A DNA stretch of 64,000 nucleotides from an uncultured Bacillota bacterium (GCA_963804645.1 CAWDRG010000017.1:96001-160000), one strand, 5' to 3'. Shown: positions 4,246 through 46,368, counted from the stretch's first letter. Notes: a model not told the origin generated them from the sequence alone. Program-made: numbers and translations.

Positions 4246-4299
4246 ACCGCCGCGACGCGCGGCTGTTCCCGGCGGACGAACCCGCCACCCATGGAGCGG

Positions 4300-4830: not shown

Positions 4831-5119
4831 CCCGATCGCCGGCCCTTCTTGACGGACAGCCCGCCTCTCCCGCGAGCGCCGTCCCTGATGCCTTCCGCGG
4901 TCCGTCTCCCAAGAGCGCCCGAGCGCGCCGCGCGTCTCCCGGAAGCCGCCCGTCTAGATCGAACGATACGTCCACATTCACTCTGCAACGACGCCCGAGC
5001 GCGCGCCATAGGACGAAAGTCCCAGCGCCCGGAACACATGGTCGGTAGGATGCCGGCGTGCACGGGCGGGGCGGCGCGCCGCGCTGTGATCGCGGCTCAG
5101 GCTCCCGCCGGCCCGTCGG

Positions 5120-5710: not shown

Positions 5711-5758
5711 CGTGGCCTCCCTCCATCCGCGTCGAGCCGACCGATCGGTCCGACGACG

Positions 5759-6553: not shown

Positions 6554-6588
6554 CCTCCTGGGTCCGCGCGGCCCGGCGCGAAACGCGA

Positions 6589-7884
6589 TCAGGCCGTCGG
6601 CGTTGAGTGTCCGGGGGTGTCGCCGCCAACCGGCGCGTCCGGCGGGGTCTCCCCGCGCCGCTCGGAGGGGGCCGGCCGCGACTCGGAGCCGGTCGGCGCC
6701 GCGGTCACGACCTGCCGCAGCAGCTCGCCGGCGATGTCGCCGATCGTGACGCGGCCTTCCTGATTCTGCGAGGTGATGTAATCTTGCACCCGCGTCCGCT
6801 CGCGCTCGCGGGCGAGGCGCTTGAGGCTGAGAATCATGCGCCGTTCCTCGGGCCGAATCTCGGTGATCAGCGCCTCGACGGTCAGGCCGACCTGCACGAC
6901 CTCGTCGACCTTCTGCACGCGCTTTTCGGCCATCTCCGAGATCGGGATGAACCCGTCGATGTCGCCGAGCCGGACGAACGCGCCGGACGCGACGACGCGG
7001 ACGACCTTCCCGGACACGGTCTGCCCCGGGCGGTAGGTGTTGCCGATGTGCTGCCACGGATCCGGCAGGATGTGCTTCAACCCCAGCGAGATGCGGCCGG
7101 CCTCCCGGTCAACGCGCAGCACGGCGACCGTCACGTGCTGCCCGCGGCGCACGACCTCGGACGGGTGCTTGATGTAGGTCCACGACATCTCGCTGATCGG
7201 CAGCAGGGCGTCCACGCCGCCGAGGTCGACGAACGCGCCGAAGTCGGCGAGGCGCTTGACGACACCCTCGCGCACCTGGCCCTCCTCGAGCGAGCTCAGC
7301 AGCTCCGCGCGGCTCTTCGCCCGGGACTCGACCAGCGCGTTCTTGTGGGACAGAATCACCCGGCCTTTGGGCCGGTCGACCTCGATCACCTTCAGCGGAA
7401 TGCTCTGCCCGACGAGGGCCTCAAACTGCCGGCCCTTGGCCTGTGACAGATCGACGTGGCTGCCGGGCACGAAGCCGCGCACGCCGAGGTCGACGACGAG
7501 CCCGCCCTTGACCTTGTCCACCACCATCGCGTGGATCACCGCGCCGGACTGGAATGTCTCCTGGATCCGGTCCCAGGTGCGGGCCAAATCGGCGCGCTTC
7601 TTGCTCAAGAGGATGCTGCCCTCGTCGCCCTCGACCTTCATCACGTACACGTCGATCCGGTCGCCGACCGCGATCCCCTCGACCACGTCGCCCCGCGCGG
7701 ATAGTTCCTTCGGCGGAATGAATCCGTCGGACTTCGCCCCGACGTCGACGAGGACGCCCTCACTGTCCACGCGGACCACGGTGCCTTGGACGATCTGGCG
7801 CTCTGCCAGCGCCGGCATCTGCGCGAGATCGATCTCTTCCGGCTGCGCCGGCGCTGTCTGTTCGTCGGACATCGAACTCACCAT
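6589..7884 (-). CDS. rpsA: 30S ribosomal protein S1 (four S1 domains)
   Basis: Repeated S1 motifs: VDVGAKSDGFIP, VKGGLVVDLGVRGFVPGS, DFGAFVDLGGVDALLPISE. Confidence 0.9.
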   Translation of the reverse strand: MVSSMSDEQTAPAQPEEIDLAQMPALAERQIVQGTVVRVDSEGVLVDVGAKSDGFIPPKELSARGDVVEGIAVGDRIDVYVMKVEGDEGSILLSKKRADLARTWDRIQETFQSGAVIHAMVVDKVKGGLVVDLGVRGFVPGSHVDLSQAKGRQFEALVGQSIPLKVIEVDRPKGRVILSHKNALVESRAKSRAELLSSLEEGQVREGVVKRLADFGAFVDLGGVDALLPISEMSWTYIKHPSEVVRRGQHVTVAVLRVDREAGRISLGLKHILPDPWQHIGNTYRPGQTVSGKVVRVVASGAFVRLGDIDGFIPISEMAEKRVQKVDEVVQVGLTVEALITEIRPEERRMILSLKRLARERERTRVQDYITSQNQEGRVTIGDIAGELLRQVVTAAPTGSESRPAPSERRGETPPDAPVGGDTPGHSTPTA

Positions 7885-30546: not shown

Positions 30547-31134
30547 CGTACCTACACCTCGGTCCTATTTTAGCATACCCGTCCCAGCTGTCCGGACGGG
30601 TGCGGACGCAACCGCACTTCCTTAAAACGATCCGGCCGCACCGGTCATTTCCGTGTTGCGGCACCTCCCCCCCAAGACGTCGACGTGAGCCCGGACACGG
30701 ACACCCCGCTCGACGCCTCGGATCGACCGCAGGCGCGCGAGATAGGTTGGACGTCGGGGCGTGCGCGAATTCCGTGTGAGACGGATCCTATGGAACGATC
30801 ACTCGACGCGCTCCACAACGAGGTCGACGGATCGAAGCGCGTCGCCACCGCTCGGGCATCCGCGTCATTCGAATGCCCCGCCACCGAGCCGAGGGAGGCA
30901 CCGCGGAGGTCGACCGAGGGCCCGCGTACCGCCGGCCCGATTCTCTCAACTGAGCGCTACCATCCACGTTCCCGTGCAGACGCCGTTCTCCGTCAACTCC
31001 GGGTGAAACACCACGCCGAGCACCGACATCACGCCCAACCGACACACGTCGAGCCAGCCTCCTCCCACCACGAACCCTTGGATCGTACCGGCAGTACGGC
31101 GGCGTGCACGCGCCGTCCCCGAGTGGGGACGGGG

Positions 31135-31941
31135 TTAGGGCTTTGGGAGAACCACGACGACACCTTCCATGGCCGTCGGATAGGCATCCGCGTCGTGGTT
31201 CGCGGCGGACCGCTGGTAAGCCGCCCGATACGTCGCGTGGAGCGCACAGTAGTACTGGTACACGCCGGCAGCCGAAAACGTGACCGGCGCGCTTTTCCCT
31301 CCCGGAATCGAAGGCGTCGCCGGAAACCGGTTCGGCGAGCCCGGCGTCGCTATCGCGATATGTGGGTCCGTGTCCGCGTTGTGGAAGGTGATCGTGGCGC
31401 CCTGCTGGACCACGGTCACATACGGCTGGAAGTAGTCCGCCGGGGCGACCACCGTCGCGCCGCTCTTCGGCGCGGGCGTGAACGCCGGACCCATCACCAC
31501 GAGGATCTGCTCCATCGGAATCGGGTACGGGGGTTCACCCTTGTGGGCGACGACGCGCCCGAGCTTCGCATCATACGTCGCCGCATCCGCGCCGTACAGA
31601 TCGTAGATACCCGCGCGCGTCAGCGTCGCCCGCGCAGTCTGGTTGGGCTCCACCGAGACCGGGAACCGCGATCCTTCGAGGCTCGGAGGCGCGATCGCTG
31701 CGGCAATTTGATGCGTGTGACTGTCGACGTTCTTCCATACGATCGAGTCTCCCAGGTTCGCCGTCACGAGGAACGGCTGGAAATATCCGTTGTGGACCGT
31801 TGCATCGATCGTTTTCTCAGCCGGGCCGGCGGTTGCTGAACGCACCGCCGGCGTCAGACCTCCCAAACACATCACAGACGCGGCCCCGATCAGGACGAAC
31901 GTCCGCGTCACTCGAACACACCGGTTCCAGATCCCTCGCAC
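31135..31941 (-). CDS. Exported two-domain cupredoxin
   Basis: Signal peptide and two plastocyanin-like repeats; C-terminal DPH...YYCALH...AMEG ligand set. Confidence 0.8.
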   Translation of the reverse strand: MRGIWNRCVRVTRTFVLIGAASVMCLGGLTPAVRSATAGPAEKTIDATVHNGYFQPFLVTANLGDSIVWKNVDSHTHQIAAAIAPPSLEGSRFPVSVEPNQTARATLTRAGIYDLYGADAATYDAKLGRVVAHKGEPPYPIPMEQILVVMGPAFTPAPKSGATVVAPADYFQPYVTVVQQGATITFHNADTDPHIAIATPGSPNRFPATPSIPGGKSAPVTFSAAGVYQYYCALHATYRAAYQRSAANHDADAYPTAMEGVVVVLPKP

Positions 31942-32217
31942 TATGCACCCTCCCTCGTTGTACTGCGCACAACCGCCTGGCTCGTGGTTCGTAGGGGAGA
32001 CGGCCCGCTACACGGCATCACGGGATCGATGCTCGAGCCCGTGTTCTCCTAGTTCATCAGCATTGCGCGCGTCGGAGAGGACATTCGACAGCGCCGTCCC
32101 GTAGTGGCGAGTGCGTACCGCACGGCGCGCCCCCTCCTTCACGTGCCGGCTCAACGGACGTCATGGTGTCAATACAGCCTGGGTCGATCATCGGAACGTC
32201 ATGCACCGTCCAGGGCG

Positions 32218-33393
32218 CTATGCCGCCGGCGCGGCGCGCTGCGGGAGGGTAATGCGAACCGTCGTGCCCTGCCCCTCCACGCTGTCGATAGTGAGCTGCC
32301 CGTCGTGGCGCTCCGCGATCGCCCGCGCGATCGCCAGCCCGAGGCCGTATCCGCCCCGCGCGCGCCCTCCCTGGTAGAAGGGATCGGTCACCAGCGGCAG
32401 CTCGGCCGACGGGATTCCCGGACCTTGGTCCCGAATCTGCGCGATCGCCCGCCCGCCGCGAGCCTCGACGCCCACCGACACCGTCCCGCCCGTGGGGGAG
32501 AACTGGATCGCGTTCTCAGTGATGGCCGTCAGCATGTCAGCGGCCTCGCCGGGATCGACGGCGACCCACACCGACTCGCCCTCGGCGTGGATCGACGCCC
32601 CGCGCTGGCGGGCGGCCTCCGACAGGCCGGCGACGACGTCTCTTGCGATCTCCGCAAGGTTGGCGATCGGCGATCCCGGGGTCGTGTCCCGCTCGGCGCG
32701 GGCGAGCGCCGTGAGGCGCGCCGCGAGGCCTTCGATGCGTCCCGCCTGGTGCAGAATCGTGTCGAGCGCCTCGCGTGGAGAGAGCCCGCGGCCGGAGCGC
32801 CCCAGCTCCGCGGCGGTCTTGATCACCGAAAGCGGGGTGCGCAGTTGATGAGACGCGAGCGCCACAAACTCGTTGCGCTCGCGCACGGCCTCGTCCAGCG
32901 GCCGAAGGGCCACCCCGGCAAGCGCGTATCCGACCGGAAGGGCGACCAGCCCGCCGGCGAGCGTCAGTGCCGCCAGCACGCGGAGCACTTCGGCCAGCGC
33001 TTGGCTTTCCACTTGCGCGGGCGTCGCGATGACGAGCGTGCCACGGGCGGACGGCACGCGGAGCACTGCCAACGACCCGAGCCGGGGATCGGTGATGATG
33101 CGGAGCCCGTCGCGGGATTCGTCGGCATCGACGGGTTCGGGAGTTTCCAGCAGCGGGCGGCCGCGCTCGTCGATGACGAGATACCCGGACGCGCCTGGAA
33201 CCTCCGTCGCGCGCACCGCGGCGTGTTCGAGGCGTTCGGAAAGGTGCGCGTACGTGGCGCTCCGGACCACGACGTACGCGCACGCGGACAACAAGGCCAG
33301 CACGCCCGCCACGACCAGCGCGCCGAGCACGGCAACGCGCCACCGGCTCCTGCGGAGCAGGCGCGGATGGCCCGACGGCGCCAGTTGGTTCAT
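32218..33393 (-). CDS. Membrane sensor histidine kinase
   Basis: Two TM helices, ASHQLRTPL H-box, ENAIQF, DQGPGI, GYGLGLAI. ATGA overlap with the regulator. Confidence 0.92.
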   Translation of the reverse strand: MNQLAPSGHPRLLRRSRWRVAVLGALVVAGVLALLSACAYVVVRSATYAHLSERLEHAAVRATEVPGASGYLVIDERGRPLLETPEPVDADESRDGLRIITDPRLGSLAVLRVPSARGTLVIATPAQVESQALAEVLRVLAALTLAGGLVALPVGYALAGVALRPLDEAVRERNEFVALASHQLRTPLSVIKTAAELGRSGRGLSPREALDTILHQAGRIEGLAARLTALARAERDTTPGSPIANLAEIARDVVAGLSEAARQRGASIHAEGESVWVAVDPGEAADMLTAITENAIQFSPTGGTVSVGVEARGGRAIAQIRDQGPGIPSAELPLVTDPFYQGGRARGGYGLGLAIARAIAERHDGQLTIDSVEGQGTTVRITLPQRAAPAA

Positions 33394-34079
33394 GGGGTGG
33401 CCGCGTCCTCCGTCGTCAGACGGTAGCCGTGGCCGGGAATTGCGACGATCCGTCCGGTCCACCCCGCGGTCCGCAGACGACGCCGCAGGCGGGAGACCGT
33501 GACATCGACCACGTTCGCGCGTGGCTCGTCGGTCGTGCCCCAGACCCGATCCAGAATGACATCCCGGGAGAGCAACTGGCCGCCGTGCCGCAGCAGATAC
33601 TCGAGGACCTCGAACTCACGGGGCGGGACCTCGATCCCGCGGCCGGCCACCGTGACCCGCCGCTCGGCCGGCACCACCGTGAGCGATCCTCCGGTCAGGG
33701 TCTCCGACACGACCAGATCCTGGGGACGCCGCAACAGCGCGCGGAGTCGCGCCACCAGCTCCTCGAACGCAAACGGCTTGATCAGATAGTCGTCGGCACC
33801 GGCGTCCAGTCCGGCGATCCGGTCATCGACCCCGCTCCGGGCCGTCAGGCAGAGGATCGGGGTACGCACACCCGCCTCCCGCAGTCCGCGCAGCAGCGTC
33901 AGGCCGTCGAGATTCGGCAGCATCAAGTCAAGGACGAGCGCATCAAACGCGCCGGCGCTCGCGACGTCATACGCCTCTGCGCCATCGCGCGTCCAGCGCA
34001 CGCCGTACCCGTAGCTTTCCAGCCCGCGGCGCACCACGTCTCCGAGCGCCTCGTCGTCCTCGACGAGCAGTACGTGCAT
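33390..34079 (-). CDS. OmpR/PhoB-family response regulator
   Basis: LLVEDD, LDLMLP, LTAR, DDYLIKPF, winged helix (NVVDVTVSRLRRRL, GHGY). Confidence 0.95.
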   Translation of the reverse strand: MHVLLVEDDEALGDVVRRGLESYGYGVRWTRDGAEAYDVASAGAFDALVLDLMLPNLDGLTLLRGLREAGVRTPILCLTARSGVDDRIAGLDAGADDYLIKPFAFEELVARLRALLRRPQDLVVSETLTGGSLTVVPAERRVTVAGRGIEVPPREFEVLEYLLRHGGQLLSRDVILDRVWGTTDEPRANVVDVTVSRLRRRLRTAGWTGRIVAIPGHGYRLTTEDAATP

Positions 34080-34147
34080 CGCGATCGCCACCTCCGTACG
34101 TGCATGGTAAGTATACGGGCCGCCGGCGCGCTGCACAAACCGCCCGG

Positions 34148-34813
34148 TCATCGGGGGCGTTCGGTCCCGTTGCCGGCGACCGCCCGCGCCATCCTGTACC
34201 CGCGTTCTCGCGTCGCGTCCGCGGCCCCGGATGACGGCGCCCGGCGGGTGGTCAACGTCCCCGGCGCGGCTGGCACCGCCTGTCCGATCTCCCGACCACG
34301 GCCGCGCTCCCGGTACACCAACTCTCCCCCGGAGTACCCGGTGGCCACCAACACGGCGAAGGTCAGCGCGCCAGCGATCATCGCGAGTCCCGGGCGACGC
34401 AATGTGCCCAGCGCGACGGCGACGCGCGCGGCGACCCAGAGCGCGACGAGAGCGAGCAGGACGTACCCCCAGTGCTCGTGGACCTCCACGCGCCGACCGC
34501 TGAAGAAGTGCGTGAGGTCGGGGAGATGAAGCCCCGGCGCCGCGACGGCGGCACTACCCTCGCGCTCACTCGCTTCCGGGGTGATGCGGCCGCTCAGCAC
34601 GGCCAACACCGTGCCAACCGCGCCGGCGGCGAGGCAGTACAGCCCCGCGACTCGAAACGATGACGACTTGCGCGCCCAGCCGATGATGTCGAACACCAGG
34701 GCCACCGACAAAAGCGCGACGGGAAAGTGGACGAGGATCGGGTGCAACTCCACACGCCAGTTGAAGGGAAACGGCAACCATCTGCCTCCTTGTCCAGGAT
34801 TCATCGGTAGCAC
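34148..34813 (-). CDS. DUF2231-like membrane protein, copy 1
   Basis: LHPILVHFPVAL, HEHWG, TGYSGGELVY. Confidence 0.8.
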   Translation of the reverse strand: MLPMNPGQGGRWLPFPFNWRVELHPILVHFPVALLSVALVFDIIGWARKSSSFRVAGLYCLAAGAVGTVLAVLSGRITPEASEREGSAAVAAPGLHLPDLTHFFSGRRVEVHEHWGYVLLALVALWVAARVAVALGTLRRPGLAMIAGALTFAVLVATGYSGGELVYRERGRGREIGQAVPAAPGTLTTRRAPSSGAADATRERGYRMARAVAGNGTERPR

Positions 34814-34828
34814 GATCGACCGCGACCC

Positions 34829-34860
34829 AGTCTATCCGGGTGCGATGACAGATCGATGAC
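34829..34860 (-). promoter_or_regulatory. Direct-repeat box promoter A (DUF2231-RR-HK operon)
   Basis: GTCATC-gatct-GTCATC-N9-TAGACT. Confidence 0.75.
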
Positions 34861-35487
34861 ACGGGCGCTCGGGATCGAGCGTCTGGTCGTGCTCTCTGGC
34901 GACCATCAACAGGCCGTCGATGCGGTGACGAGGCAACTCGGTCTTGATGAGGGGCGAGGCGATCTGCTGCCGGAGGATAAGGTGGCGCCGTTGAGGCGCT
35001 GGAGGCGTCGGGGCGGCCACAATGGTCGGCGACGGCATGAAGACGCACCCGCCCTGGCGGCGGCTACCGTCGGGATCGCCATGGGCGCGGCCGGCACGGA
35101 CGCAGCAACGGAGACCGCGGACGTCGTCCTCATGGGCGACAATCTTGGTCGGCTCCCCTACGCGATCGGGCTGAGCCGTCAGGTCCGCCGGGTCATCGCT
35201 CAAAACCTTGTGTTCGCATTTTGCGTCGTGGCCGTGCTGGTGACCGTCGTGCTGGTCACGGGCTACGGCTGGCGTTCGGCGTCGTGGGCCACGAGGGCAT
35301 CACGGTGGTGGTGGTGGTGGTGGTGGTGGTGCTGAACGGACTTCGGCTTCTCGGGTACGACTCGTCCCCGTCGGCAACCGACATCGTGTCCCATTCCGGC
35401 ATAGCATCCGCCCGCGGCGGCCCACCGGCCGTGAACGCGTTGCCTCACCCGCACATGCCGCCGTCGGCCGGCCCCCGTTGCTCGTGA
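34856..35487 (+). pseudogene. C-terminal remnant of a heavy-metal P1B-type ATPase
   Basis: LSGD, LLPEDK, frameshifted MVGDG..DAPALA, GIAMGAAGTD, HEGIT..LNGLRLL. No N-terminal part. Confidence 0.8.
35305..35331 (+). repeat. (GTG)9 microsatellite
   Basis: Nine perfect GTG units read directly. Confidence 0.9.
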
Positions 35488-35618
35488 CGTTTGTTGTGCA
35501 GCTGTCGGAGGTCCTAGACGGTGGACCCTACGGCTTCAGCGACACAGGGTATGCCCAAACGCCGTGCCCGGAACCGCCGGTGGAGGAATTGAGAGCGCCC
35601 GTGTCGCCGCACGTCCAC

Positions 35619-35650
35619 GTCATCGGGCCGTCATCCTCACCCGCTACGCT
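35619..35650 (+). promoter_or_regulatory. Direct-repeat box promoter B
   Basis: GTCATC-gggcc-GTCATC-N9-TACGCT. Confidence 0.75.
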
Positions 35651-35685
35651 GGGATCGATTGGCGACGGGCGCCAGCGGAGGGCGT

Positions 35686-35961
35686 ATGGGGACTCAACGC
35701 GACACCACCGACCTGGTGATCGCCGAAGCGCGCTTGCAGATCGTCCGGGTGCACCGACGCGAGTGGCGCAGGGTCCAGCGCCGCCTCGAGCGGCACGCCA
35801 ACCCTCCGGTGAGCCCTCCGCGCGACCCGAACGGTCCATGGACGGCCGCATGCGAACGCCGAACAGGCACGCATCGTCGTCCGCCCCCTCTCGACAACCC
35901 GATCACGTGTGCAGTGACTCGATCTCGCGCAGTCGATCAAGCTCGTGCCCCGCGGCGGTGA
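35686..35961 (+). CDS. Small Arg-rich hypothetical protein, copy 1
   Basis: GGAGG RBS; MGTQRDTTDLVIAEARLQIVRVHRREWRRVQRRLER; paralogue at 44547. Confidence 0.6.
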   Translation: MGTQRDTTDLVIAEARLQIVRVHRREWRRVQRRLERHANPPVSPPRDPNGPWTAACERRTGTHRRPPPLDNPITCAVTRSRAVDQARAPRR

Positions 35962-36175
35962 TCGCCTTCGGGGTTACGGCGCGGGTATCCACCATGGCAT
36001 CAACACGGCGATATCCTGGGAGGCATGCTCGCGAGCAGCGCGGTCGTGGCGCCCCGAGCCCGTGGTCTGTTGGAGCCGATGCTGAAGGGCGCTCGTCGGA
36101 CGGCTCGGCGTCTGCGTTTCGGGTAACTATGGACGGCGTGCCGGGGGCCGGGATGGGAAGTCTCGAACGACCGTA

Positions 36176-37036
36176 ATGCTCCTTGGCCCGCTCTACCGGA
36201 TCTACGAAGCACGACTCCTAACGAGTCTGCGAGATGGACCCCTTCCCAAGCACGTTGGCCTCATCCTTGACGGCAACCGCCGCTATGCGGAGCAATCGGG
36301 GCGGTCGAGCGCCGACGCGTACCAGCGAGGGGCCGACAAGGTTGACGACGTCCTCAAGTGGTGTGATGAACTCGGGATTGCCCAGGTCACGGTGTGGGTG
36401 CTCTCCATCGAAAATCTCAACCGTCCTGTCGAGGAAATGCAGCCTCTGCTTGATGTGATCGAGCGGAAGATTGCGGCGTTGGCCGGGCATCCGGTGACGA
36501 CACGACACGGACGTCGCATCCGCGCGGTCGGTCACCTGGAGGCGCTCCCGCCATCCCTTCGGCAGACGATCGCTGAGGCGGAGCGGCGCACCGCGGGGCA
36601 TGATACCTGCGTCCTGAACCTCGCCGTCGGATACAGCGGCCGGCAGGAGATCACCGATGCGGTCCGGGCGCTGGTGCGGGCTCACTACCGGCCGGGCATC
36701 ACCATCGAGGACCTGATGGCGCACCTTACCCTCGAAGAGATCGGGTGCCACATGTACGCTGGGAGCGACGACGATCCTGATCTGATCATTCGAACCAGCG
36801 GGGAGATCCGATTGAGTGGTTTCCTGCTGTGGCAAAGCGTCTACAGCGAGTATTACTTCTGTGATGTCTACTGGCCCGCGTTCCGCAAGGTGGACTTCTT
36901 GCGGGCGCTTCGCAGCTATCAGCAGCGACAGCGTCGGTTTGGTCGTAGTAGAGCGGGCATGTCGGGCGGCATGGCGCACCTCGACGCGGGCGATCGGATG
37001 CCCGACATCGGTATTATGCTCCGCGCGCCGCGCTGA
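36176..37036 (+). CDS. cis-Isoprenyl diphosphate synthase (UppS / short-chain Z-prenyltransferase family)
   Basis: HVGLILDGNRR, SIENLNRP, PDLIIRTSGEIRLSGFLLWQ, RRFG. Confidence 0.92.
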   Translation: MLLGPLYRIYEARLLTSLRDGPLPKHVGLILDGNRRYAEQSGRSSADAYQRGADKVDDVLKWCDELGIAQVTVWVLSIENLNRPVEEMQPLLDVIERKIAALAGHPVTTRHGRRIRAVGHLEALPPSLRQTIAEAERRTAGHDTCVLNLAVGYSGRQEITDAVRALVRAHYRPGITIEDLMAHLTLEEIGCHMYAGSDDDPDLIIRTSGEIRLSGFLLWQSVYSEYYFCDVYWPAFRKVDFLRALRSYQQRQRRFGRSRAGMSGGMAHLDAGDRMPDIGIMLRAPR

Positions 37037-37262
37037 TATGCGCGAGCGTCGAGCGGGGCGAACCGGCGGGGAGAAAAGCCGCGGCCCGAGGCATCACGAC
37101 TGGGGGGAGGAACGTCGATGACACCAAGGGCCGCGGCGTATTGCCGAATGTGAGCAAGGTGGGGCCGAGCGACGTCCTGCCCGCCCAGGCGGCCCTCGCG
37201 CGGGAGCTCCCTGGTGATGTACAGCATCGGGAGGCGGGCGATCTCATAATGTTCTTGGCATT

Positions 37263-38603
37263 TCATCGCGCTTGTGCGGCGTCCAGCGCCGCCTGCAGCT
37301 GGGTATCCACGCCGCGCTCCATGTCGGCCTCCGTGAGCGTCACGGGAACGTCGGGTGAGAGTCCCACGCCCTCAACCCGCGCGCCTCGAGGGGTGGTAAT
37401 CCGCTCGACCGTCACGGACATCCCACCCTCCGGGAGGGGGACCTCAACCGCCCCACCTAGAGCGCCCGCAGTCTTCTCTCCCACGATCGTCGCTCGATGA
37501 TAGTCCCTGAACGCGCCGGTCACGATCTCCGCGGCGGAGGCGGTGCCCGCATCGACCAGAACAGCGAGGGGAACCTCGGCGAGGAGGCCCACCCCCCGCG
37601 CCGTGAGCACGCCAGTCCCGTTCCGCGGGTCCGTCACATTCGCCAGCGCGGTCCCGGACGGGAGGAACAGGCCGCCGACGCGCGCCGCTTCGGTGATGAG
37701 GCCGCCGGGGTTGCCGCGCAGGTCGAGGATGACGGCGCGCAGCGGAGCCTGCATGGCGAGTTCCTGAAGGGCGGCGTTCAGATCGCGTCCGGCTCCCTGG
37801 CTGAACTGGAAGAGGCGGACGTAGGCGATGCCGGGCTGGATGAACCGGGCTTCCACGGCTCCCGATTGGATGGGGGCCCGGACGACCGACATCTGCAGGG
37901 TCTGCTGGCCCCGCAGCACAGTGAGGGCCACCGTCGTGCCGGCCGGACCGCGGACTGCCTGGCTCGCCTCCGCGGGGGTCGCATCCCGAAGGGACGTGGT
38001 GCCGGCCTGCACGATCCGGTCGAAGCGTTGGATGCCCGCGGCTTCAGCGGGGGATCCCGGCACCACGTCGTCGACAAAGACCCAGCGCACGCCGGCGCCG
38101 TCGGTCCGTCCCGTGATCCGGACGCCGATGCCGGTGAACACCGACGCTCCTGCCAGTACCTGCTGAGACGCCGCGAACTGGCTCGGAGTCAGGAAGTAGG
38201 TGTGGGTGTCGTGCAGGGAGTTGAGCATCCCCTGGGTCGCGGCATACGCCAGTTTCGTCTCGGCCTGCGGGTCCGCCTGAGCGGCGCGCGAAAACTCCGT
38301 CACAAACGCGGCGTCCGCCTCCTGCTCCGTAGCCGTGCTCGGGATATCCGGGAGGATCGCGGCGCTCTCATGGGTAGCCGTCCGCACGGTCGCGAGCGCC
38401 GCGTTCAGCAGGTCGACCGGATGCACGGGCTCCGCATAGTTCCGTTCGAGCACCTGGAGTGCTGACACGACGAGCGACCCGTCGGCCGCCCTGGCCGGGA
38501 CCACCTGGGCCAGCAGCGCCAGCACTATCACGAGGGCCGACGCCGCGAGAGTGCCGCGCGACCACGCGGACCGCGCATGACCCAACTTCCCCGGCATGTT
38601 CAT
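37263..38603 (-). CDS. S41 family C-terminal processing peptidase (PDZ)
   Basis: Signal peptide, GIG PDZ, DLRGNPGG, TASAAE, GVGLSPD. Confidence 0.9.
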   Translation of the reverse strand: MNMPGKLGHARSAWSRGTLAASALVIVLALLAQVVPARAADGSLVVSALQVLERNYAEPVHPVDLLNAALATVRTATHESAAILPDIPSTATEQEADAAFVTEFSRAAQADPQAETKLAYAATQGMLNSLHDTHTYFLTPSQFAASQQVLAGASVFTGIGVRITGRTDGAGVRWVFVDDVVPGSPAEAAGIQRFDRIVQAGTTSLRDATPAEASQAVRGPAGTTVALTVLRGQQTLQMSVVRAPIQSGAVEARFIQPGIAYVRLFQFSQGAGRDLNAALQELAMQAPLRAVILDLRGNPGGLITEAARVGGLFLPSGTALANVTDPRNGTGVLTARGVGLLAEVPLAVLVDAGTASAAEIVTGAFRDYHRATIVGEKTAGALGGAVEVPLPEGGMSVTVERITTPRGARVEGVGLSPDVPVTLTEADMERGVDTQLQAALDAAQAR

Positions 38604-38651
38604 TCTGAGACCTCCTCGTCCCACCCGGCGCATGTGCCGGAGGTACCCGCG

Positions 38652-39328
38652 CTACGGTGCGCGCTGCGCAGTAAACTGAATCTCCAGTTCCACCTGGTTC
38701 TGGGCCTGGAGCACCCCCAGGAGGGACGGCGGATCGAACCCGAAATCCGTCATCAGGACGCTCGTGGTGGCGTCGCCGGTCAGCGTCTGGCCGTTGAGCG
38801 TGACCGTGCCGGTGAAGTGACCGGCTTGGTGACGCCGTGGACCTCGAGGGTGCCGGCGATCCGGACGGGGATCACCCGGCCGTCCACGTAGGCAGCTCGG
38901 GAGGCCGTCGATCGAGGTTGGCGTGAACACCGCGGTCGGGTACCGCCCGGACTCGAGCCAGCGGTTCTGGATTTCCCGGTCGCGGCGGCGGCTGTCCGAG
39001 GTGAGCTGGCTGATGTTGACGGTGATCGGGCCGATCCGGCTCTGCGACGGGTGGGCCCGATCGACCAGGATCTGGCCCTGGATCCCGTGCGTCGTCCCAA
39101 CCGCGACTTGAATTGATTGTTCCGGTTGAAGAACGTCTCGCCGACGCGGTACAGCGCCTGCGACGCCGACGAATCGATCGCGAACCGTTCCACGCCTGCT
39201 ACGGCGGGCGCCGGGACGGGCGCGGCCGCGAGCGCGCCGCCGGACGGCATCCAGGCGGCGAAAAGGGGCGTCAGCGTCAACAGGCCCACGCGGCGCCGCA
39301 GGTATGTCAATCCGGTCCAAGGGTGCAT
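38652..39328 (-). CDS. YceI-family polyisoprenoid-binding protein, copy 1 (frameshifted)
   Basis: YRVGETF, LTSDSRRRD, LESGRYPTAVF, GTLEVHGVTKPV, MTDFGFDPP spread over several frames. Confidence 0.8.
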
Positions 39329-39455
39329 GCCGAGTGCTCCTTTCATGCGCCGGGGTGTGCCGAGCGTCCGCGCGATCGCGCGGCTCGAATAACAGTCCAA
39401 TCGGCTATCCTCTTCCGTTCCCGTACAACCTCAGTCGTCTCGCCTCCAATGGCCT

Positions 39456-39487
39456 AACGTACCTCGGCGAGATGACATCCGGATGAC
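39456..39487 (-). promoter_or_regulatory. Direct-repeat box promoter C (YceI-S41)
   Basis: GTCATC-cggat-GTCATC-N9-TACGTT. Confidence 0.75.
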
Positions 39488-39851
39488 ACGGGTCGCTCGC
39501 ACGATCGAGCCGATGTCCGAGATTCCTGCCCTTCGCAGAACCGTGTTCGGGGCGGCACGCAGGTCGAGTCGCGCGCGCGTCCAGATCGTGATGGTTGACA
39601 AGAACGGCTTGCACGGCACGCCCGTGTGGCTGATGGGCATCAGTATCGATACTCCGACGCGCAAACGGAAGTCCGGTGAGCGCGTGCGTCTCGTCGCGCC
39701 GTGGAAGTATCATCGCTGCGTTACCAGCCCTGTGGAAAGCCCGACACACGCTGTTACTGAACCGCCGTGTCCGGGAGCGCCGCCCGGGCAGCCCTGGCGC
39801 GGCGCCGGCCCACAACTGGAGAATCTAGGTCGTGAGTAGCCCGGCGTGGCT

Positions 39852-39883
39852 GTCATCGGTCCGTCATCCTCAGCCGTTAGGCT
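39852..39883 (+). promoter_or_regulatory. Direct-repeat box promoter D
   Basis: GTCATC-ggtcc-GTCATC-N9-TAGGCT. Confidence 0.75.
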
Positions 39884-39917
39884 GGGATCGATTGAGGGCA
39901 CTGGAGGTGACACCACC

Positions 39918-40570
39918 GTGAGTGCAGAACGCGCCCCCTGGAAAATCGTCGTGTTGGCGCTGACCGCCGTGGTCGGCCTGGGGCTCGGGATCGACGGCGC
40001 CCGCGCGCCGGCGCTAAATCCGGCGCTCGCCGGTATCGGGAGCGCTGCGCCGGCGGCCGGGAGCACCGGCACCGCCGGATCCGCCTCGCCCCGCGCTCAT
40101 GGCGGCAGCGCTCCGTCATCTGCCTGCCCGGCCGAGGACCAACCGCAGGCGCTGGCGAGGAGGCGGGCGAGCGCGGAAACGCCGAACACGGTGAGACGCT
40201 CGCAGCCTCGTCGCAGACTGCGCCGGCCGGGACGCCCTCCGGTTCGCCGCCTCCGGCGGTCGGCCCGCTGCTGTCGGAGATGTGGTACGCGTCTCGCGCC
40301 TATCAAGTGTATCCTGCGATGCCGTCCGCTCAGACGGACCGCGCCTTGACCGGTTTCCGGCTCTCGTTCCAGGATGTAAGTCCGACGTCCGCGAAAGTCA
40401 CGGTGACGGACCTCCAGGACAACACGACGCAAACCGCCACGTTCGGTCGCACCGACCGCCTCTACTTCATCGAAACACGAATGGGGGATGATGGCTTTGA
40501 TGGCGAGACAAACCTTTCCGACGATGGATTCGTCCTCACGGACGCCCAAGGCCACATCATCAGCCACTAG
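39918..40570 (+). CDS. Exported hypothetical protein with acidic C-terminal domain, copy 1 (frameshift in linker)
   Basis: GGAGG RBS, GTG start, N-terminal hydrophobic helix, Ala/Pro linker; C-domain (40280-40570 frame) homologous to 43669-44397. Confidence 0.65.
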
Positions 40571-40591
40571 CGACCGGCGGCTCGGCCCTGC

Positions 40592-41332
40592 CTGATCGCC
40601 AGGTTGGCGACCGGGCTCATCCTGTGATGCTTCGGCGTTTGGGAGCTCGCCGGCCCGAGCCAATGGACGGGCTATGTGCCGCAGTTCCTGGCGAACATCG
40701 CCTCGCCAATGTTGCTCGTCGTCCTCCATGGGTGGATTTTGTTCCTGCTCGGCGCAGCGGCGCTGATCGATTTCGCGCCGGTGGTCACTGCATGGATCGC
40801 GGTCGTGGTCGTGGCGGAGGTCGCCGGCGGGCTGGCACTGACGAGCGGGTTCACCGAGATCCTCGTCCGGGACGTTGGGCTCCTCGCCCTGGCGCTAGTA
40901 TGGGCGCTGGAGAGCAAACGCCGCGAGATGCATGCGCGGCGAATCAACTCGGAACGGCGTAGCCGGGTCGTGGGCGATCGACGAGCCGCCGGGGTGGGGC
41001 TATTCGAGCGCGCGCAGGCACTCGACGACGTACCGATCTACATTCACCCGGCCGACCTTCCGGTATGCGATACGGGACATTTACTTCAAAAAATATCAAG
41101 GATTGGCGCGCACGGCATGAGGGTGGGCGCTCGACACCGGCACACATCTCCTCCGGCTTATGTGTCGCGGGCTGCGACGCCTATCCCATGGCACGAAGCA
41201 TCGTGGGACATATCCGGAAGCGTGCAACCATACAATTACCGCCGGGAGCCATCGGGCGACCGCCGAGCCCGACCTGGTGCCATGGCTCGGGCGCCGGGCA
41301 AGCTGCACCCGATGACGACGATCGGCGGGTGA
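40592..41332 (+). pseudogene. DoxX-like membrane protein, copy 1 (in-frame TGA at 40625, no clear start)
   Basis: LIARLATGLIL*CFGVWELAGPSQWTGYVP...HGW...ILVRDVGLLALA; aligns with 43052-43672. Confidence 0.65.
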
Positions 41333-41889
41333 TCGGCGCTATCGATGCGGCGGTCGCCGGCACCACCTGACCGCTCTCGCGACCGCGCTCCCGGTAGACC
41401 AGCGCCCTCCGGAGTAGCCGGTGACCAGCAACACGGCGAAGGTCAGCACGCCAGCGACCATCGCCAGCCCCGGACGACGGAGTTTGCCCAGGGCGACGGC
41501 CAGGCGCGCGGCGACCCAGAGCGCGACGAGAGCGAGCAGGACGTACCCCCAGTGCTCGTGGACCTCCACGCGCCGGCCGCTGAAGAAGTGCGCGAGGTCG
41601 GCAGATGAATTCCCGGCGCCGCGACGGCGGCACCACCCTCGCGCTCATTCGCTTCCGGAGTGATGCGACCACTCAGCACGGCCAACACCGTGCCAACCGC
41701 GCCGGCGGCGAGGCAGTACAAGCCCGCGACTCGCAACGAGGACGATTTGCGCGCCCAGCCGATGACGTCGAACAACAGGGCCATCGACAACAGGGCGACC
41801 GGGAAATGGACCAGGATCGGGTGCAGCTCGACACGCCAGTTGAAGGGAAACGGCAACGATCTTCCTCCTTGTCTCGTCTGCAGCGCCAT
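41181..41889 (-). CDS. DUF2231-like membrane protein, copy 2 (frameshifted)
   Basis: Near-identical to 34148-34813 (LHPILVHFP, HEHWG, TGYSGG); frame changes near 41600 and 41400. The 3' end is uncertain. Confidence 0.7.
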
Positions 41890-42104
41890 CGACCGCGACG
41901 CAGTGTTTTCGGGCACCTGGAGCCCCGACACGAGCGCCCTGTCGACCACCCTCGCGGGAACCACCTGGACCACCGACACCCGCACGAGGGCCCACCCCGC
42001 GGGAGCGCCGCGCGCTCCCGCGGATCTCACGTACCCCGGCGTCGCCCGGCCCGACCACGCCGAGCACTCCTCGTCTCACCGCGCGTGCGCCGAAGGTACG
42101 CTCG

Positions 42105-42775
42105 CTACGGCGCGCGCTGCGCCGTAAACTGAATCTCCAGTTCTACCTGGTTCTGCGCCTGGAGAATCCCCATGAGGGACGGCGGATCGAACCCGAAATC
42201 CGTCATCAGGACGTTCGTGGTGGCATCCCCGGTCAGCGTCGGACCATTGAGCGTGACCGTGCCGGTGAAGGTGACCGGCTTGGTCACGCCGTGGACCTGA
42301 AGGGTACCGGCGATCCGACGGGGATCGCGCGGCCTTCCACTAGGCGCCCGGCAGGCCGTCGATCGAGGTCGGAGTGAACACCGCGGTCGGGTATTGCGCG
42401 GAATCGAGCCAGCGGGTCTGGATTTCCCGGTCGCGGTGGCGGCTGTCCGAGGTGAGCTGGCTGATGTCGACGGTGATCGGTCCGATCCGGCTCTGCGACG
42501 GGTGGGCGCGATCGACCAGGATCTGGCCCTCGATGCCGTGCGTGGTCCCGACCGCGACTTTGAACTGATTGTTGCGGTTGAAAAACGTCTCGCCGACGCG
42601 GTACGGCGCCTGCGACGCCGACGATCGATGACGAACCGTTCGATCCCCGCCGCGGCGGGCGCCGGGACGGGTGCCGCCGCCAGCGCGCCGCCAGAGGGCA
42701 TCCATGGCGAGCAGAGCCGCCGCAAGAGGCCCACTCCGCGCCGCCGTAGGAAGGTCATTCCTGTCCAATGCGCAT
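42105..42775 (-). CDS. YceI-family protein, copy 2 (frameshifted)
   Basis: Clear nucleotide and protein paralogue of 38652-39328. Confidence 0.78.
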
Positions 42776-42941
42776 GCTGATGCTCCTTTCCACCCGCGGG
42801 ACGTGCCGGGCCTCCGCGCGATCGCGCGGTCAAGAGTTTCGATCACAGCGCCGGCTCGCCCTGAAGGTTCCGGGTCCACGTTCGACGTGACGCCGTCGGC
42901 ACCGGTCCCGGCCCACACAAGCGGGCCGGTCGCACCTCTGT

Positions 42942-42973
42942 ACGCTACGTCGTCGAGATGACATCCGGATGAC
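42942..42973 (-). promoter_or_regulatory. Direct-repeat box promoter E (YceI-DUF2231)
   Basis: GTCATC-cggat-GTCATC-N9-TAGCGT. Confidence 0.75.
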
Positions 42974-43051
42974 AGCGGTCCTGGCGGAACCAGGAGGTGT
43001 TCGGGGCTCCCGCCCCGCGCGTGGCGCCAGGTCGTGCTCGCCAGGGGTGCC

Positions 43052-43672
43052 TCAGCGCCAGTGGGCGGCGGCGGACCGCGCTTGGTGTTCCTCGCCGCCC
43101 CATGCCTGTTGTGCTGGAGTCAGCGAGGAGAGGTGACGGGTGCGCAACCGCACCCAGGACGCAGCGAAGTGGCCCCCTCGGGCGGGTTCCGGATTGGTCG
43201 AGGAGGCCACCCACCCACGCACGGCAGGTGCCGCGTGCCACCCCCACGATGCGCCGCGTGTCATGCGCCGGACTACGACGTCCGGGACATGCGTACCCGC
43301 TCGAGTCGGCGCCCTCGTTGCCTCCGGATGCGGTCCGATTTCCTCCGTCGCCCAGACCAAGGCCAGCGCCAGGAGCCCGACGTCGCGGACGAATGTCGCG
43401 GTGAGACCACCCGTCCACGCGAGCACCGCGACAACCTCGGCAAGCGCGGCCACGGCGAGCCAGGCGGTCACCACGGGGACGAAGTTGATCCAGGCCGCCG
43501 CGCCCAGCATCAAGAGCACCCACCCGTGCGCCAGGACGAGCGGCACAGCCTCGACGCGTGCCGCGGGAAGAGGCGGGACGTAGCCGATCCATTGGGCTGG
43601 TGCCGCGAGTTCCCACGCACCGAAGCTCACAAATACCAGTCCTGTGGCCAGCCGCGCGAGGAGACGGGTCAT
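43052..43672 (-). CDS. DoxX-like membrane protein, copy 2
   Basis: Four TM helices; RLATGLVFVSFG, P..W..YVP, FVRDVGLL. ATGA-coupled to the upstream gene. Confidence 0.7.
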   Translation of the reverse strand: MTRLLARLATGLVFVSFGAWELAAPAQWIGYVPPLPAARVEAVPLVLAHGWVLLMLGAAAWINFVPVVTAWLAVAALAEVVAVLAWTGGLTATFVRDVGLLALALVWATEEIGPHPEATRAPTRAGTHVPDVVVRRMTRGASWGWHAAPAVRGWVASSTNPEPARGGHFAASWVRLRTRHLSSLTPAQQAWGGEEHQARSAAAHWR

Positions 43673-44397
43673 CGAGGCCCCGCGCTGGGAGCCCCGAAAA
43701 GACCCGACGAAGCAAGGATGTGCCCCGCCGCGTCGGTCACGATGAAGATGTCGTCACTATCATCCGTTTCGCCCCCCGCCCCATCGTCGCCCCCCTCGGA
43801 GTCGACGAAGTAGAGGCGATAGCGATTGTCATAGATCGCGTGCTGGGTGGAATCTTCCCGGAGGTTGTACAGCGTCATCTCCACCGTCGTCGGCGAGGCG
43901 GGGCGGATCATCAGCTGGAACCCCGTGAGCGCCCGTTCGGCGTCGGCTGATGGCGAGCCGGGATACAGCTGGTACGCAAAGCGGGCGTACCACGTTTGCG
44001 ACAGCAGAGGCCCGCTGCCTGGGCTCGCGGAGGCGGGAGCCGCCGCCCCGGACGGCGTGGGAGGAGGAGTCAGCGGTGAAACCCCGGTCTCCCGCCGGGT
44101 CGACCCCGCCGGCGCCGCCTCGGAGGTGGACGCCGCACGGAACGTTCGCGGCGTTGGCGTAGGCGGCTCCCCCCGCTCCGATTTCGTGGTGGGGGTGGAC
44201 GGATCGACGGGGGTGGCCGCGCGAGGTGTCGCCCCCAAGGGGATGTCGGGGGTGATGCCGCCACCCGGCGACGATGCGGGAGGCTCGACTCCCGGCAGCG
44301 GGGTCGATCGCGGCAGCACAGAATCGCTCGTCAAGGCCAGCGCGAGACCCCCGATCGCAACAAGCACCATGACCGTGATCTTCCCCATCTCCCGCAT
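43669..44397 (-). CDS. Exported hypothetical protein with acidic C-terminal domain, copy 2
   Basis: N-terminal hydrophobic helix, Pro/Thr linker, YQLYP..ALTGF..RLYFVD..GDDG..DD.FIVTDAAGHI. Confidence 0.72.
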   Translation of the reverse strand: MREMGKITVMVLVAIGGLALALTSDSVLPRSTPLPGVEPPASSPGGGITPDIPLGATPRAATPVDPSTPTTKSERGEPPTPTPRTFRAASTSEAAPAGSTRRETGVSPLTPPPTPSGAAAPASASPGSGPLLSQTWYARFAYQLYPGSPSADAERALTGFQLMIRPASPTTVEMTLYNLREDSTQHAIYDNRYRLYFVDSEGGDDGAGGETDDSDDIFIVTDAAGHILASSGLFGAPSAGPR

Positions 44398-44478
44398 GCC
44401 GCTACTGTTGTGCCCTGCGTACGGACCTCGACGGACATGGCCGGACCGCATCACGCTCCAGGTCCCACGACCTGTCCC

Positions 44479-44510
44479 GTCATCGGGCCGTCATCCCAAC
44501 CCGTTACGCT
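44479..44510 (+). promoter_or_regulatory. Direct-repeat box promoter F
   Basis: GTCATC-gggcc-GTCATC-N9-TACGCT. Confidence 0.75.
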
Positions 44511-44546
44511 GGGCACGACTGACAGACGTGAGAGGAGGATGGACTC

Positions 44547-44741
44547 CTGAGGACTTCACGCGACGCCGCCGACCTTGTGATCGTCGAAGCGCAATTGCGG
44601 ATCGTCCGAATGCACCTGCGGACGTGGCGCACGGTCCAACGCCGCCTTGAGCGGCGCGCACGACTCTACCGATGGGTCCTCGGCGCGCCCCGCACGCTCC
44701 ATGGATTACGCGCGGAGCGCGGCGGGCCCCCGGCAGCCTAG
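44547..44741 (+). CDS. Small Arg-rich hypothetical protein, copy 2 (apparent CTG start)
   Basis: GAGGAGG RBS; (L)RTSRDAADLVIVEAQLRIVRMHLRTWRTVQRRLERR; not in the ORF track. Confidence 0.5.
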   Translation: MRTSRDAADLVIVEAQLRIVRMHLRTWRTVQRRLERRARLYRWVLGAPRTLHGLRAERGGPPAA

Positions 44742-44867
44742 CGGATCGGCGCTGGGTCTCACGGTGGGACACGGATCATCGCGGGCCACGGAGGCACGCG
44801 TCTCCGCGCCTTGCCGGACGCCGCGAAACCGCGGCGTCGCGCGGGTCCGACGTCTCTGACGCGGCCG

Positions 44868-45844
44868 CTACCCCAGGGTTGGATCGATCGCCGTATCGGC
44901 GCCGAGCACCGACCCCGGGGGCAGCGGTCGTCCGCGGACGTACGCCGCCGCCGACATCCGCCGGCCGGACGCCGGCTGCACCTCGTGGATCCCGACGGCG
45001 CCATCCCCGGCCGCGACGAGCAGCGGCGCGTCCGGGACCGTCCGGAACGGCGAGCACCGTGCCCGGGACGACCGCGGCCGCGCTCCCGGCGGCGGCGAGC
45101 GCGGACGCGCGCCACACCCGCAGCACCTCGCCGTCGCGCAGGGTGTGCGCGACCGGCCACGGATCAAACGCCCGCACGCGATTCACGATCCGGACGGCCG
45201 GCGTCGCTCCAGCGAATCAGCGCCTCCTCGCGGGTCAGCTTCGGCGCGAACGTCGCCAGCGCCGGATCTTGGGGATGCCGGGGGGCCTGTCCTTCGTCGA
45301 GGAGGCGCACCGCCTCGGCCAGCAGCCGCGCCCCGTCGCCCGCGAGACGCGGCTCCAGCGTCCGCGTCGTGTCGTCGGGCGAGATCGGAACCGCGCGCTG
45401 CAGGATCAGATCGCCCGCGTCCATCTCGTCGGACAGATGCAGCACCGTCACGCCGGTCTCCCGGTCGCCGGCCTCGATCGCCCTCGGGATCGGCGCGGCC
45501 CCGCGGTAGCGCGGCAAGAGCGAGGGATGCAGGTTGATGCCGCCGAGGCGCGGCATCGCCAGCAGGCGGGCCGGCAGGAACCGGCCGTACGCCACGACCA
45601 CGAAGAGGTCGGACGCGAGCGCCCGCAGCAGCTCGACGAACGCCGGGTCCCGGAGCGACTCCGGCGTCCACACGTCGAGCGCGTACTGATGCGCGGCGGC
45701 GGCGACGGGCGTCGGCTCCACAACGAGCCCGCGCCCGCGCGGACGGTCCGGCTGCGTCACCACCGCGGCGATCTCGCTCTCCGCGAGGACCGCGTCGAGG
45801 GACGGCACCGCGAACGCCGGCGTGCCGAAGAAGACGACCTTCAC
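44868..45844 (-). CDS. fmt: Methionyl-tRNA formyltransferase (two apparent frameshifts in the C-terminal domain)
   Basis: [41 protein letters not shown]; then [10 protein letters not shown] and [10 protein letters not shown] in other frames. Confidence 0.92.
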
Positions 45845-46368
45845 GACTGGGGCGGCTCTTGCGCCGCGACCTCGGACGGCGCGTCGTCCACGTGATGGTA
45901 GGTCGCGCGGTCCCGGATGCGCTCCGGAAACAGGATCCCGTCGAGGTGGTCGATCTCGTGCTGCAGGATGCGCGCGAGCATGCTGTCGGCGTTGATCGTC
46001 ACGTACCGGCCGCGGCGGTTGCGGGCGCGCACCACGACCTTGAGCGCGCGCGGCACGTCCCCCACCCATCCGGGAATACTGAGGCACGCTTCGGGGGCGA
46101 TCTCCTCGCCCTCCTGACGGAGGATCTCCGGGTCGACGAGTGCCAGGCGCGATTTCTGAAACTCGATGACGAGCACGCGCCGCCCGATCCCAACCTGGGG
46201 CGCGGCGAGCCCGATCCCGTGCGCCTCGTGCATCGCGTCAAACATCTGGTCGATCAGCTGCTGGATCTCGCGTGTCACCGCGCGGACCGGCTGGGCGCGG
46301 CGGTGCAGCACGGCCGCCCGGGGGCTGTCGACGGTGATGATCTCCAGGGTCCGAGGCGCGTCGGCCAC
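45841..46368 (-). CDS. def: Peptide deformylase
   Basis: GIGLAAPQVG, EACLS, QHEIDHLDG. Confidence 0.95.
   Translation of the reverse strand: MADAPRTLEIITVDSPRAAVLHRRAQPVRAVTREIQQLIDQMFDAMHEAHGIGLAAPQVGIGRRVLVIEFQKSRLALVDPEILRQEGEEIAPEACLSIPGWVGDVPRALKVVVRARNRRGRYVTINADSMLARILQHEIDHLDGILFPERIRDRATYHHVDDAPSEVAAQEPPQS

Follow-up and report, generated by a model that had tools for sequence, protein, structure and literature searches.

A stretch of 64,000 nt from an uncultured Bacillota bacterium (contig C17, positions 96001-160000, of a 5.3 Mb assembly in 22 contigs with 69% G+C), called the window throughout, carries six copies of a direct repeat of GTCATC, the box, each followed at a fixed distance by a -10-like hexamer. 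The six sites are most probably promoters that lack a -35 element, with predicted binding by the response regulator of the OmpR/PhoB family encoded beside them, which would recruit RNA polymerase there. That the boxes are pho-box-like activator sites of this local regulator, predicted to define its regulon, is strongly supported by comparative genomics, and together they give a well-supported, computationally defined regulon of a two-component system in an uncultured bacterium.

Architecture of the sites

Six exact matches to GTCATC-N5-GTCATC are present in the window, compared with a mean of 0.02 and a largest number of 1 in 100 shuffles that preserved dinucleotides. They lie at 34829-34860 (site A, minus strand), 35619-35650 (site B, plus), 39456-39487 (site C, minus), 39852-39883 (site D, plus), 42942-42973 (site E, minus) and 44479-44510 (site F, plus), and each box is followed by exactly 9 nt and then by TAGACT, TACGCT, TACGTT, TAGGCT, TAGCGT and TACGCT, respectively. 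An earlier, sequence-only reading of the window had reported these six positions and strands, the perfect repeats on an 11-bp period, the 9 nt and the TAnnnT hexamer, and had held that half-sites and spacing are fixed while the spacers vary. All of this was borne out; when the six sites are aligned with 40-60 nt of flank on each side, the only invariant positions are those of the half-sites and the TA of the -10.

Across the whole genome the exact repeat occurs 11 times, always with N9 and TAnnnT behind it, and the reversed control pattern occurs 0 times; a genome-wide scan of this kind had been proposed as a check on the sequence-only reading and, like the shuffles of the window, it came out in favour of it. 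The five exact boxes outside the window are all on contig C14, which is 25.8 kb long. With the relaxed pattern GTCAT-N6-GTCAT-N10-TAnnnT there are 12 sites in the genome, six of them in the window and the other six again all on C14, and the statement that no such site exists outside the block holding sites A to F is thus correct for the window and incorrect for the genome. A matrix built only from 24 sites of related genomes recovers exactly these 12 sites, which score from 28.9 to 39.7 bits (31.6, 39.7, 35.1, 31.4, 28.9 and 33.0 bits for sites A to F); the next match scores 18.3 bits, and nothing scores above 14 bits on the reversed sequence.

In a survey of 94 genomes of the order the full architecture was found at 38 sites in 11 genomes, and the reversed control yielded 1 site. 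The positions that the search pattern leaves free are constrained too. Among 35 distinct sites the base preceding GTCAT is C or T in both half-sites in 35/35, the base following it is C or G in most cases, and 27/35 have a G two bases ahead of the -10. As a pyrimidine precedes every GTCAT, the half-site is better written YGTCAT(C/G), with the spacing hexamer-N5-hexamer-N10 and then the -10. The half-sites are direct and not inverted, at an 11-bp period, in 12/12 sites of this genome and 38/38 sites of the order, and in all 38 the N9/N10 spacing to the -10 is invariant and the box points toward the gene in a single orientation, a gene start lying behind each site.

The second half-site ends 10 bp ahead of the -10, as the latter is assigned from the sequence. 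If the -10 is taken as -12 to -7, the half-sites fall at about -39 to -33 and -28 to -22, where a -35 element would sit. The spacers from GTCATC to TAnnnT are 9 and 20 nt and neither copy stands 16-18 nt from the -10; scoring of the interval 31000-45000 for sigma-70 consensus promoters found 0, with 1.1 expected.

Distribution of the box and the regulator

The regulator gene was followed through the same 94 genomes, an orthologue being a match at E <= 1e-70 (65-79% identity), and was found in 11 of them. The proposal that the sites form the regulon of the local OmpR/PhoB-family regulator is upheld by the co-occurrence of box and orthologue in 10/94 genomes and their joint absence from 82/94, with disagreement in 2/94 (one genome, G009, has only the regulator and one, G045, only the box); the uniqueness of the sites and a DoxX target, which had been part of the same proposal, did not survive. 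The carriers are patchily distributed, comprising 5/6, 2/7, 1/6, 1/1 and 1/1 genomes of five genera in two families, so that the pattern is not the inheritance of one clade.

Inspection of the orthologous loci, a second check that had been suggested, showed a box no more than 2 kb from the regulator gene in 10/11 genomes with the regulator. In seven of these (G001, G002, G003, G005, G006, G012, G014) the box, with N9 and TAnnnT, is 45-93 nt upstream of the regulator gene on the divergent strand, and the divergent gene encodes YceI in G012 and G014. The box directly follows the kinase gene in G017 and G057, and in the present genome it is 781 nt upstream of the regulator gene with a DUF2231 gene in between. 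Some of the relatives' sites are on several other contigs, away from the regulator. No such site was found in a control set of 80 loci, 855,255 bases in all, that surround other regulators of the OmpR family. Regulator loci from named genomes were considered as close relatives and rejected; they are only generic OmpR-family loci, the best regulator being 63% identical and the repeat upstream of it having a 12-bp period, and they served as a negative control only. The box travels through related genomes with the regulator gene, and for this reason it is likely to be the predicted binding site of the neighbouring response regulator.

A number of observations weigh against this interpretation. 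The genome with the regulator only (G009, orthologue 67% identical) has no box, even by a loose search of its locus, and the genome with the box only (G045, 94% complete, no orthologue found) has a single full-architecture site, before a gene for a secreted fasciclin-domain protein (locus L122, 548-1230, on G045:C83). The two-by-two table of box against regulator overstates the significance, related genomes not being independent of one another. Nor are the six sites of the window six independent events; they come partly from segmental duplication, because B, D and F resemble each other beyond the box, as do C and E, and because the block contains paralogous segments (34221-34840 and 41302-41913; 38445-39383 and 41908-42829; 35613-35842 and 44474-44705). 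Frame breaks, present in most target genes of the window, may mean that part of its regulon is dead, or may be indel errors of the assembly. Lastly, the stimulus of the system is a guess from gene content.

The regulator and its kinase

The regulator gene (33390-34079, minus strand) encodes a receiver domain (Response_reg, PF00072, 8.5e-27) and a winged-helix domain (Trans_reg_C, PF00486, 2.1e-20), and its product, the predicted box binder, is the sole orthologue-grade copy in the genome. It scores below the cut-off of every NCBIfam equivalog, including those for PhoB, CusR/CopR-type regulators, RppA, MtrA, CseB, BaeR and others, and hence belongs to no named orthologous group; the best-scoring models are RppA (199.9 bits, cut-off 250) and TIGR01387 (181.2 bits, cut-off 279.2). 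The closest solved relative by sequence is PrrA of M. tuberculosis (3e-44).

The adjoining sensor histidine kinase gene (32218-33393, minus; HisKA and HATPase_c domains) has a start that overlaps the stop of the regulator gene, and the two genes are neighbours in 9/9 relatives' loci long enough to show it. Two membrane helices of the kinase flank an outside loop of about 100 residues, which contains no Cys, no Met and only two His, a composition that lends metal sensing no support.

Site A points into a run of genes comprising DUF2231, regulator and kinase. The first of these, for a DUF2231 membrane protein (34148-34777, minus; PF09990, 1.1e-19), has a likely TTG start at 34777 behind AAGGAGG. 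A putative sigma-70-like promoter of the regulator gene itself (34110-34138, minus; TTGTGC, 17 nt, TATACT) lies between the DUF2231 gene and the regulator gene and matches the element upstream of the orthologues. Autoactivation via site A is only one possible route of expression and would add feedback rather than be the sole source, since the regulator gene keeps this conserved promoter of its own. The DUF2231 gene shares bases of its stop codon with a single remaining GATGAC half-box (34110-34152, minus), as if the gene had been inserted into an older arrangement of box and promoter.

The scheme that is proposed begins with the kinase, which would sense an extracytoplasmic signal through its outside loop, become activated and phosphorylate the regulator. 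Phosphorylated regulator would bind the two YGTCAT half-sites as a head-to-tail dimer and, once bound, would bring RNA polymerase to the TAnnnT -10 of promoters without a -35 element. Read-through from site A may then provide positive feedback, on top of the expression from the regulator gene's own promoter.

Comparison with known systems

At pho boxes the distance to the -10 is the same 10 bp. Two papers give the E. coli PhoB consensus as CTGTCAT-A(AT)A(TA)-CTGT(CA)A(CT) (PMC3465305, PMC4415409), and a third places the PHO box around -35 (PMC8601176). PhoB-PhoR and the present system have in common a regulator of the OmpR/PhoB family with a membrane kinase, two direct half-sites at an 11-bp period in the position of the -35, and core letters that are nearly the same in the pho box and in YGTCAT(C/G). 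In contrast, the regulator reaches only 178 bits against a cut-off of 296.2 with TIGR02154 and 131.1 against 471 with NF007546, there is no phosphate gene downstream here, and the bases that separate the half-sites are rich in G+C here and in A/T in E. coli. Identity as the phosphate regulator was therefore rejected, the cut-off of the PhoB equivalog being missed and the targets not being phosphate genes.

The spacing is also that of the CiaR-CiaH system of streptococci, for which one report describes a repeat TTTAAG-N5-TTTAAG that its authors looked for ten bases from the -10, htrA being a chief target (PMC3091779). The likeness covers the spacing hexamer-N5-hexamer-N10 followed by the -10, the small size of the regulon (about a dozen promoters), HtrA among the main targets (boxes stand at HtrA-like genes in G001, G003, G005 and G057), and the small RNAs that CiaR also drives, which may be compared with a candidate stretch of ~190 nt in relatives of the same genus. 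The half-sites differ, being TTTAAG there and YGTCAT(C/G) here, and of the repeat only the spacing is common; moreover the present genome has no box-bearing HtrA gene and no ~190-nt RNA candidate. Orthology to CiaR is unlikely at this distance.

CpxAR, BaeSR, CssRS and MprAB are two-component systems of envelope or secretion stress. Their output is similar, in that HtrA/DegP and tail-specific proteases, an RND pump (on C14 in the present genome) and small envelope proteins are involved, the likeness being one of output only, with motifs outside the comparison. There is no orthology to these systems, every NCBIfam equivalog scoring far below its cut-off; the regulator, for example, scores 119.5 against 380 with BaeR and the kinase 71.2 against 486 with CpxA. 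Heavy-metal regulators (CusR/CopR/SilR and RppA) provide the best-scoring NCBIfam models, and the system has as neighbours what is left of a P-type ATPase gene and a gene for a cupredoxin. However, the regulator falls short with TIGR01387 and RppA, as given above, and the kinase with TIGR01386 (88.9 against 292.55), the sensor loop is without Met and Cys, and the C14 pump is nearer to the multidrug RND type. It would appear from sequence comparison that the system works like PhoB and CiaR and that its output resembles that of the envelope-stress systems.

A literature search found no paper describing this doubled GTCAT repeat. A published occurrence of GTCATC in the context of direct repeats or response regulators was considered and discarded, the letters occurring in a primer only, and a genome paper that also came up is unrelated. 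The same search found no paper linking YceI with DUF2231, and only one in which DUF2231 itself is mentioned.

Other readings of the sites

It has also to be considered that the local regulator binds the boxes as a repressor or a dual regulator, in which case its occupation of -39 to -22 would block polymerase at promoters that are otherwise constitutive. The box does overlap the would-be position of the -35, there are OmpR-family proteins with activating as well as repressing effects, and in relatives 5-7 nt separate the box from the -35-like hexamer in the promoter of the regulator gene itself, where the box could act negatively. This reading is nevertheless improbable, as the sites have no recognisable -35, none of them scores as a sigma-70 consensus promoter and they would thus be weak unaided, while the fixed 10-bp distance and the single orientation in 38 sites are what activation by contact with polymerase needs and what a repressor does not. 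Promoters of PhoB and CiaR with the same geometry are activated (PMC8601176, PMC3091779).

The repeat and TAnnnT could alternatively be the promoter of an alternative sigma factor of the extracytoplasmic function (ECF) type, or the site of another DNA-binding protein borne on the same island, with the regulator merely travelling alongside. All sites in this genome are on the island, and linkage alone could give the co-occurrence. Immediately after a box on C14 (locus L119, 7972-8349, minus; E 0.059) and in G002 (locus L107, 542-865; E 2.4e-4) come small open reading frames (ORFs) that weakly resemble sigma-70 region 4, both below the cut-off, and on C14 the ORF is followed by a weakly MerR-like one (E 0.0041). 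Yet an 11-bp-period tandem repeat is the signature of winged-helix response regulators and not of a -35, the spacers of 9 and 20 nt leave no -35/-10 pair 16-18 nt apart, and the weak region-4-like ORFs occur in 2/11 genomes examined compared with a regulator in 10/11 genomes with the box; that the relatives have sites on several contigs away from the regulator also runs counter to mere linkage. Such a promoter or protein is likewise improbable.

That the sites are functionless copies of one duplicated promoter fragment in a decaying island is very improbable: the paralogous segments in the block, the likeness of B, D and F beyond the box and the many frame-broken genes behind boxes in the window are what it would lead one to expect, but only the half-sites and the -10 are invariant in the six-way alignment, the cores are better kept than the positions between them when the two island copies are compared (2/85 core positions changed and 8/80 between-core positions, a small sample), and the same architecture with other spacers stands before envelope genes, orthologous ones and others, in 10 more genomes from five genera, a conservation across genera which has already shown duplication alone to be insufficient.

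Genes behind the boxes

The gene map of the window is based on Pfam and NCBIfam scans of all ORFs of at least 100 residues. The activator reading had named YceI, DUF2231, DoxX, an S41 protease and two further protein families as targets, and all of these except DoxX were found behind boxes; there is no DoxX gene in the block, and the 7 DoxX matches in the genome include 0 on this part of C17 or on C14. Two markers of phylum, WhiB and Spo0A_C, were looked for and gave no match.

Behind site B are the B copy of a gene for a small basic helical protein (35659-35961, plus), which leaves the frame of its family after about 47 codons, and, 3' of the site, an isoprenyl transferase gene of the undecaprenyl-diphosphate-synthase family (36176-37036, plus; PF01255, 7.7e-72; TIGR00055 above cut-off). 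Site C is followed by a gene for a YceI-like secreted protein (38652-39400, minus), its signal-peptide part and its YceI domain being in two frames, and then by a gene for an S41 protease of the C-terminal-processing type with a PDZ domain (37263-38633, minus; PF03572, 1.3e-36). The gene behind site D encodes a membrane-anchored protein, the D family (39918-40570, plus), and is split over two frames. Site E faces a second YceI gene (42105-42918, minus), present as two ORFs that match the halves 18-87 and 88-150 of the profile, and a second DUF2231 gene (41339-42030, minus), also split over two frames. Behind site F is the F copy of the small basic protein gene (44532-44741, plus), which has one base more than the C14 copy and has thereby lost the GTG start in use on C14. 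A D-family paralogue of 261 aa (43669-44454, minus) is intact, and no box of its own was seen.

Two further neighbours suggest a link to metals. At 34862-35511 (plus) lies what remains of a heavy-metal P-type ATPase gene, its 3' portion, with 89.7% identity to C14 1764-2404, and a secreted two-domain cupredoxin-like protein is encoded 3' of the kinase gene (31135-31941, minus; PF13473, 5.7e-08; PF00127, 8.3e-06). With a gap of about 280 nt, it is uncertain whether the cupredoxin gene belongs to the kinase operon.

Boxes in the related genomes stand before a similar set of genes. YceI is found behind boxes in G001, G002, G003 and G012, DUF2231 in G006 and G014, S41 proteases in G012 and G057, HtrA-like proteases with PDZ domains in G001, G003, G005 and G057, a 168-residue membrane protein in G002 and G005, the site-D family in G002 and G012, and an ABC ATPase in G017. 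No HtrA gene with a box was found in the present genome.

The small basic protein, found behind boxes in G002, G005 and G006, is a basic helical protein of 52-62 residues in an alignment of the family (A2), and in four genomes, all carriers counted, its gene comes first after a box. Apart from the two window copies, it is encoded at L109 550-735, L114 1533-1709 and L111 3817-3972, and a profile search of 1.84 billion cluster representatives returned only six. The D family, with a further copy on C14 (L119 13483-14163), has 21 relatives and combines a Pro/Ser/Thr-rich linker with a conserved C-terminal domain of about 100 residues. The structure predicted for that domain is a confident, small, beta-rich model (mean pLDDT 80.7), for which Foldseek found no match in the PDB at E <= 0.001.

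The island and its second copy

The block that contains the regulator and the sites ends at fmt, def and priA and has a G+C content of 64-71% between flanks of 73-76%, as expected for an acquired island. Contig C14 of the same genome (G000; L119 1-20000) carries a second copy of window positions 35909-44862 at about 94% identity. All 12 sites of the genome being on this one low-GC island and its second copy, the regulator and its regulon appear to have arrived together in this genome.

C14 has in addition an intact P-type ATPase gene of the heavy-metal type (189-2324; TIGR01525, 2.3e-175) and an RND pump with its adaptor (3065-7615), which is behind a further box, a seventh kind of site (8387, minus strand). 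The score of the pump is higher with a multidrug type than with a CusA/CzcA type, a result which lends a metal link no support. A third copy of the pump and adaptor is present on contig C21 (G000, 34507-39111) at 92.6% identity; the similarity stops at the adaptor start, and there is no box upstream of the C21 copy.

Both YceI genes, the second DUF2231 gene, the site-D gene and both small ORFs are split in the window and whole on C14, where the site-C YceI is 249 aa long, the second YceI 225 aa, the second DUF2231 protein 265 aa and the D-family protein 227 aa. The fmt gene beside the island (44776-46087, minus) is likewise split, the N domain being in one ORF (45164-46087) and the C domain in another (44776-45186) in a different frame, and, fmt being a housekeeping gene, its break is a hint that indel errors of the assembly, and not decay, account for some of the frame breaks. 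Among public contigs of four peat-metagenome DNA runs, which are short, low-depth pieces of related strains with some indel differences, an extra G behind 41599 is present in 3/4 runs, and one contig of run X2 is without a letter at 44536. A look-up of RNA runs listed none that contains the stretch. Contigs of runs X2, X3 and X4 join window position 41778 to 34700, so that the DUF2231 gene of the E operon runs straight into the copy of the A operon. These joins look like hybrids of two paralogues that are 85% identical, whether through gene conversion, a different arrangement in another strain or assembly chimerism.

Proposed role of the regulon

The common denominator of the targets is that they are extracytoplasmic, consisting of secreted and membrane proteins together with proteases that handle damaged envelope proteins; no phosphate uptake or scavenging families are among the genes behind the sites examined. 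We infer that the regulon would serve protein quality control in the cell envelope and defence against membrane and periplasmic stress, because its genes include S41 and HtrA-like proteases, YceI, DUF2231, an isoprenyl transferase and, on C14, an RND pump. A link to metals is possible through the neighbouring genes only (the P-type ATPase remnant and the cupredoxin gene) and gains no support from the sensor loop, which is without Cys or Met, or from the C14 pump, which is nearer to the multidrug type.

In five genomes of the same genus a conserved stretch of ~190 nt, in which no ORF is evident, lies in the direction in which the box at the regulator gene points (L012 5700-5910, minus; L013 1305-1515; L016 5815-6020; L014 5800-6005; L015 5715-5920). 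It has several G+C-rich hairpins and a terminal stem, and RNAalifold gives 61 pairs, 13 of them with compensatory changes; the stretch may be a box-driven non-coding RNA, as yet a candidate. Rfam gives no match for it, and it is missing from the present genome, in which there is only one marginal match of 40 nt; an Rfam scan of the loci of four relatives found tRNAs only. It is conceivable, if doubtful, that the island is a self-contained and transferable stress module, in which the sensor-regulator pair and all its promoters travel together, with boxes that stay intact while genes break and, in sister species, a structured ~190-nt non-coding transcript, and which would be a high-G+C counterpart of the CiaR small-RNA circuit.

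The regulon had been put forward as undescribed. This fits the system, for which no description was found in the literature search, and not the mechanism, because the architecture is a textbook one and would not surprise a specialist. What has been obtained from sequence alone is a predicted wiring diagram of sensor, regulator, operator and about a dozen promoters, which holds across five genera. One switch would tie DUF2231, the basic protein of 52-62 residues and the membrane-anchored domain of ~100 residues to extracytoplasmic proteases, and this would be the first functional hint for these three families without known function.

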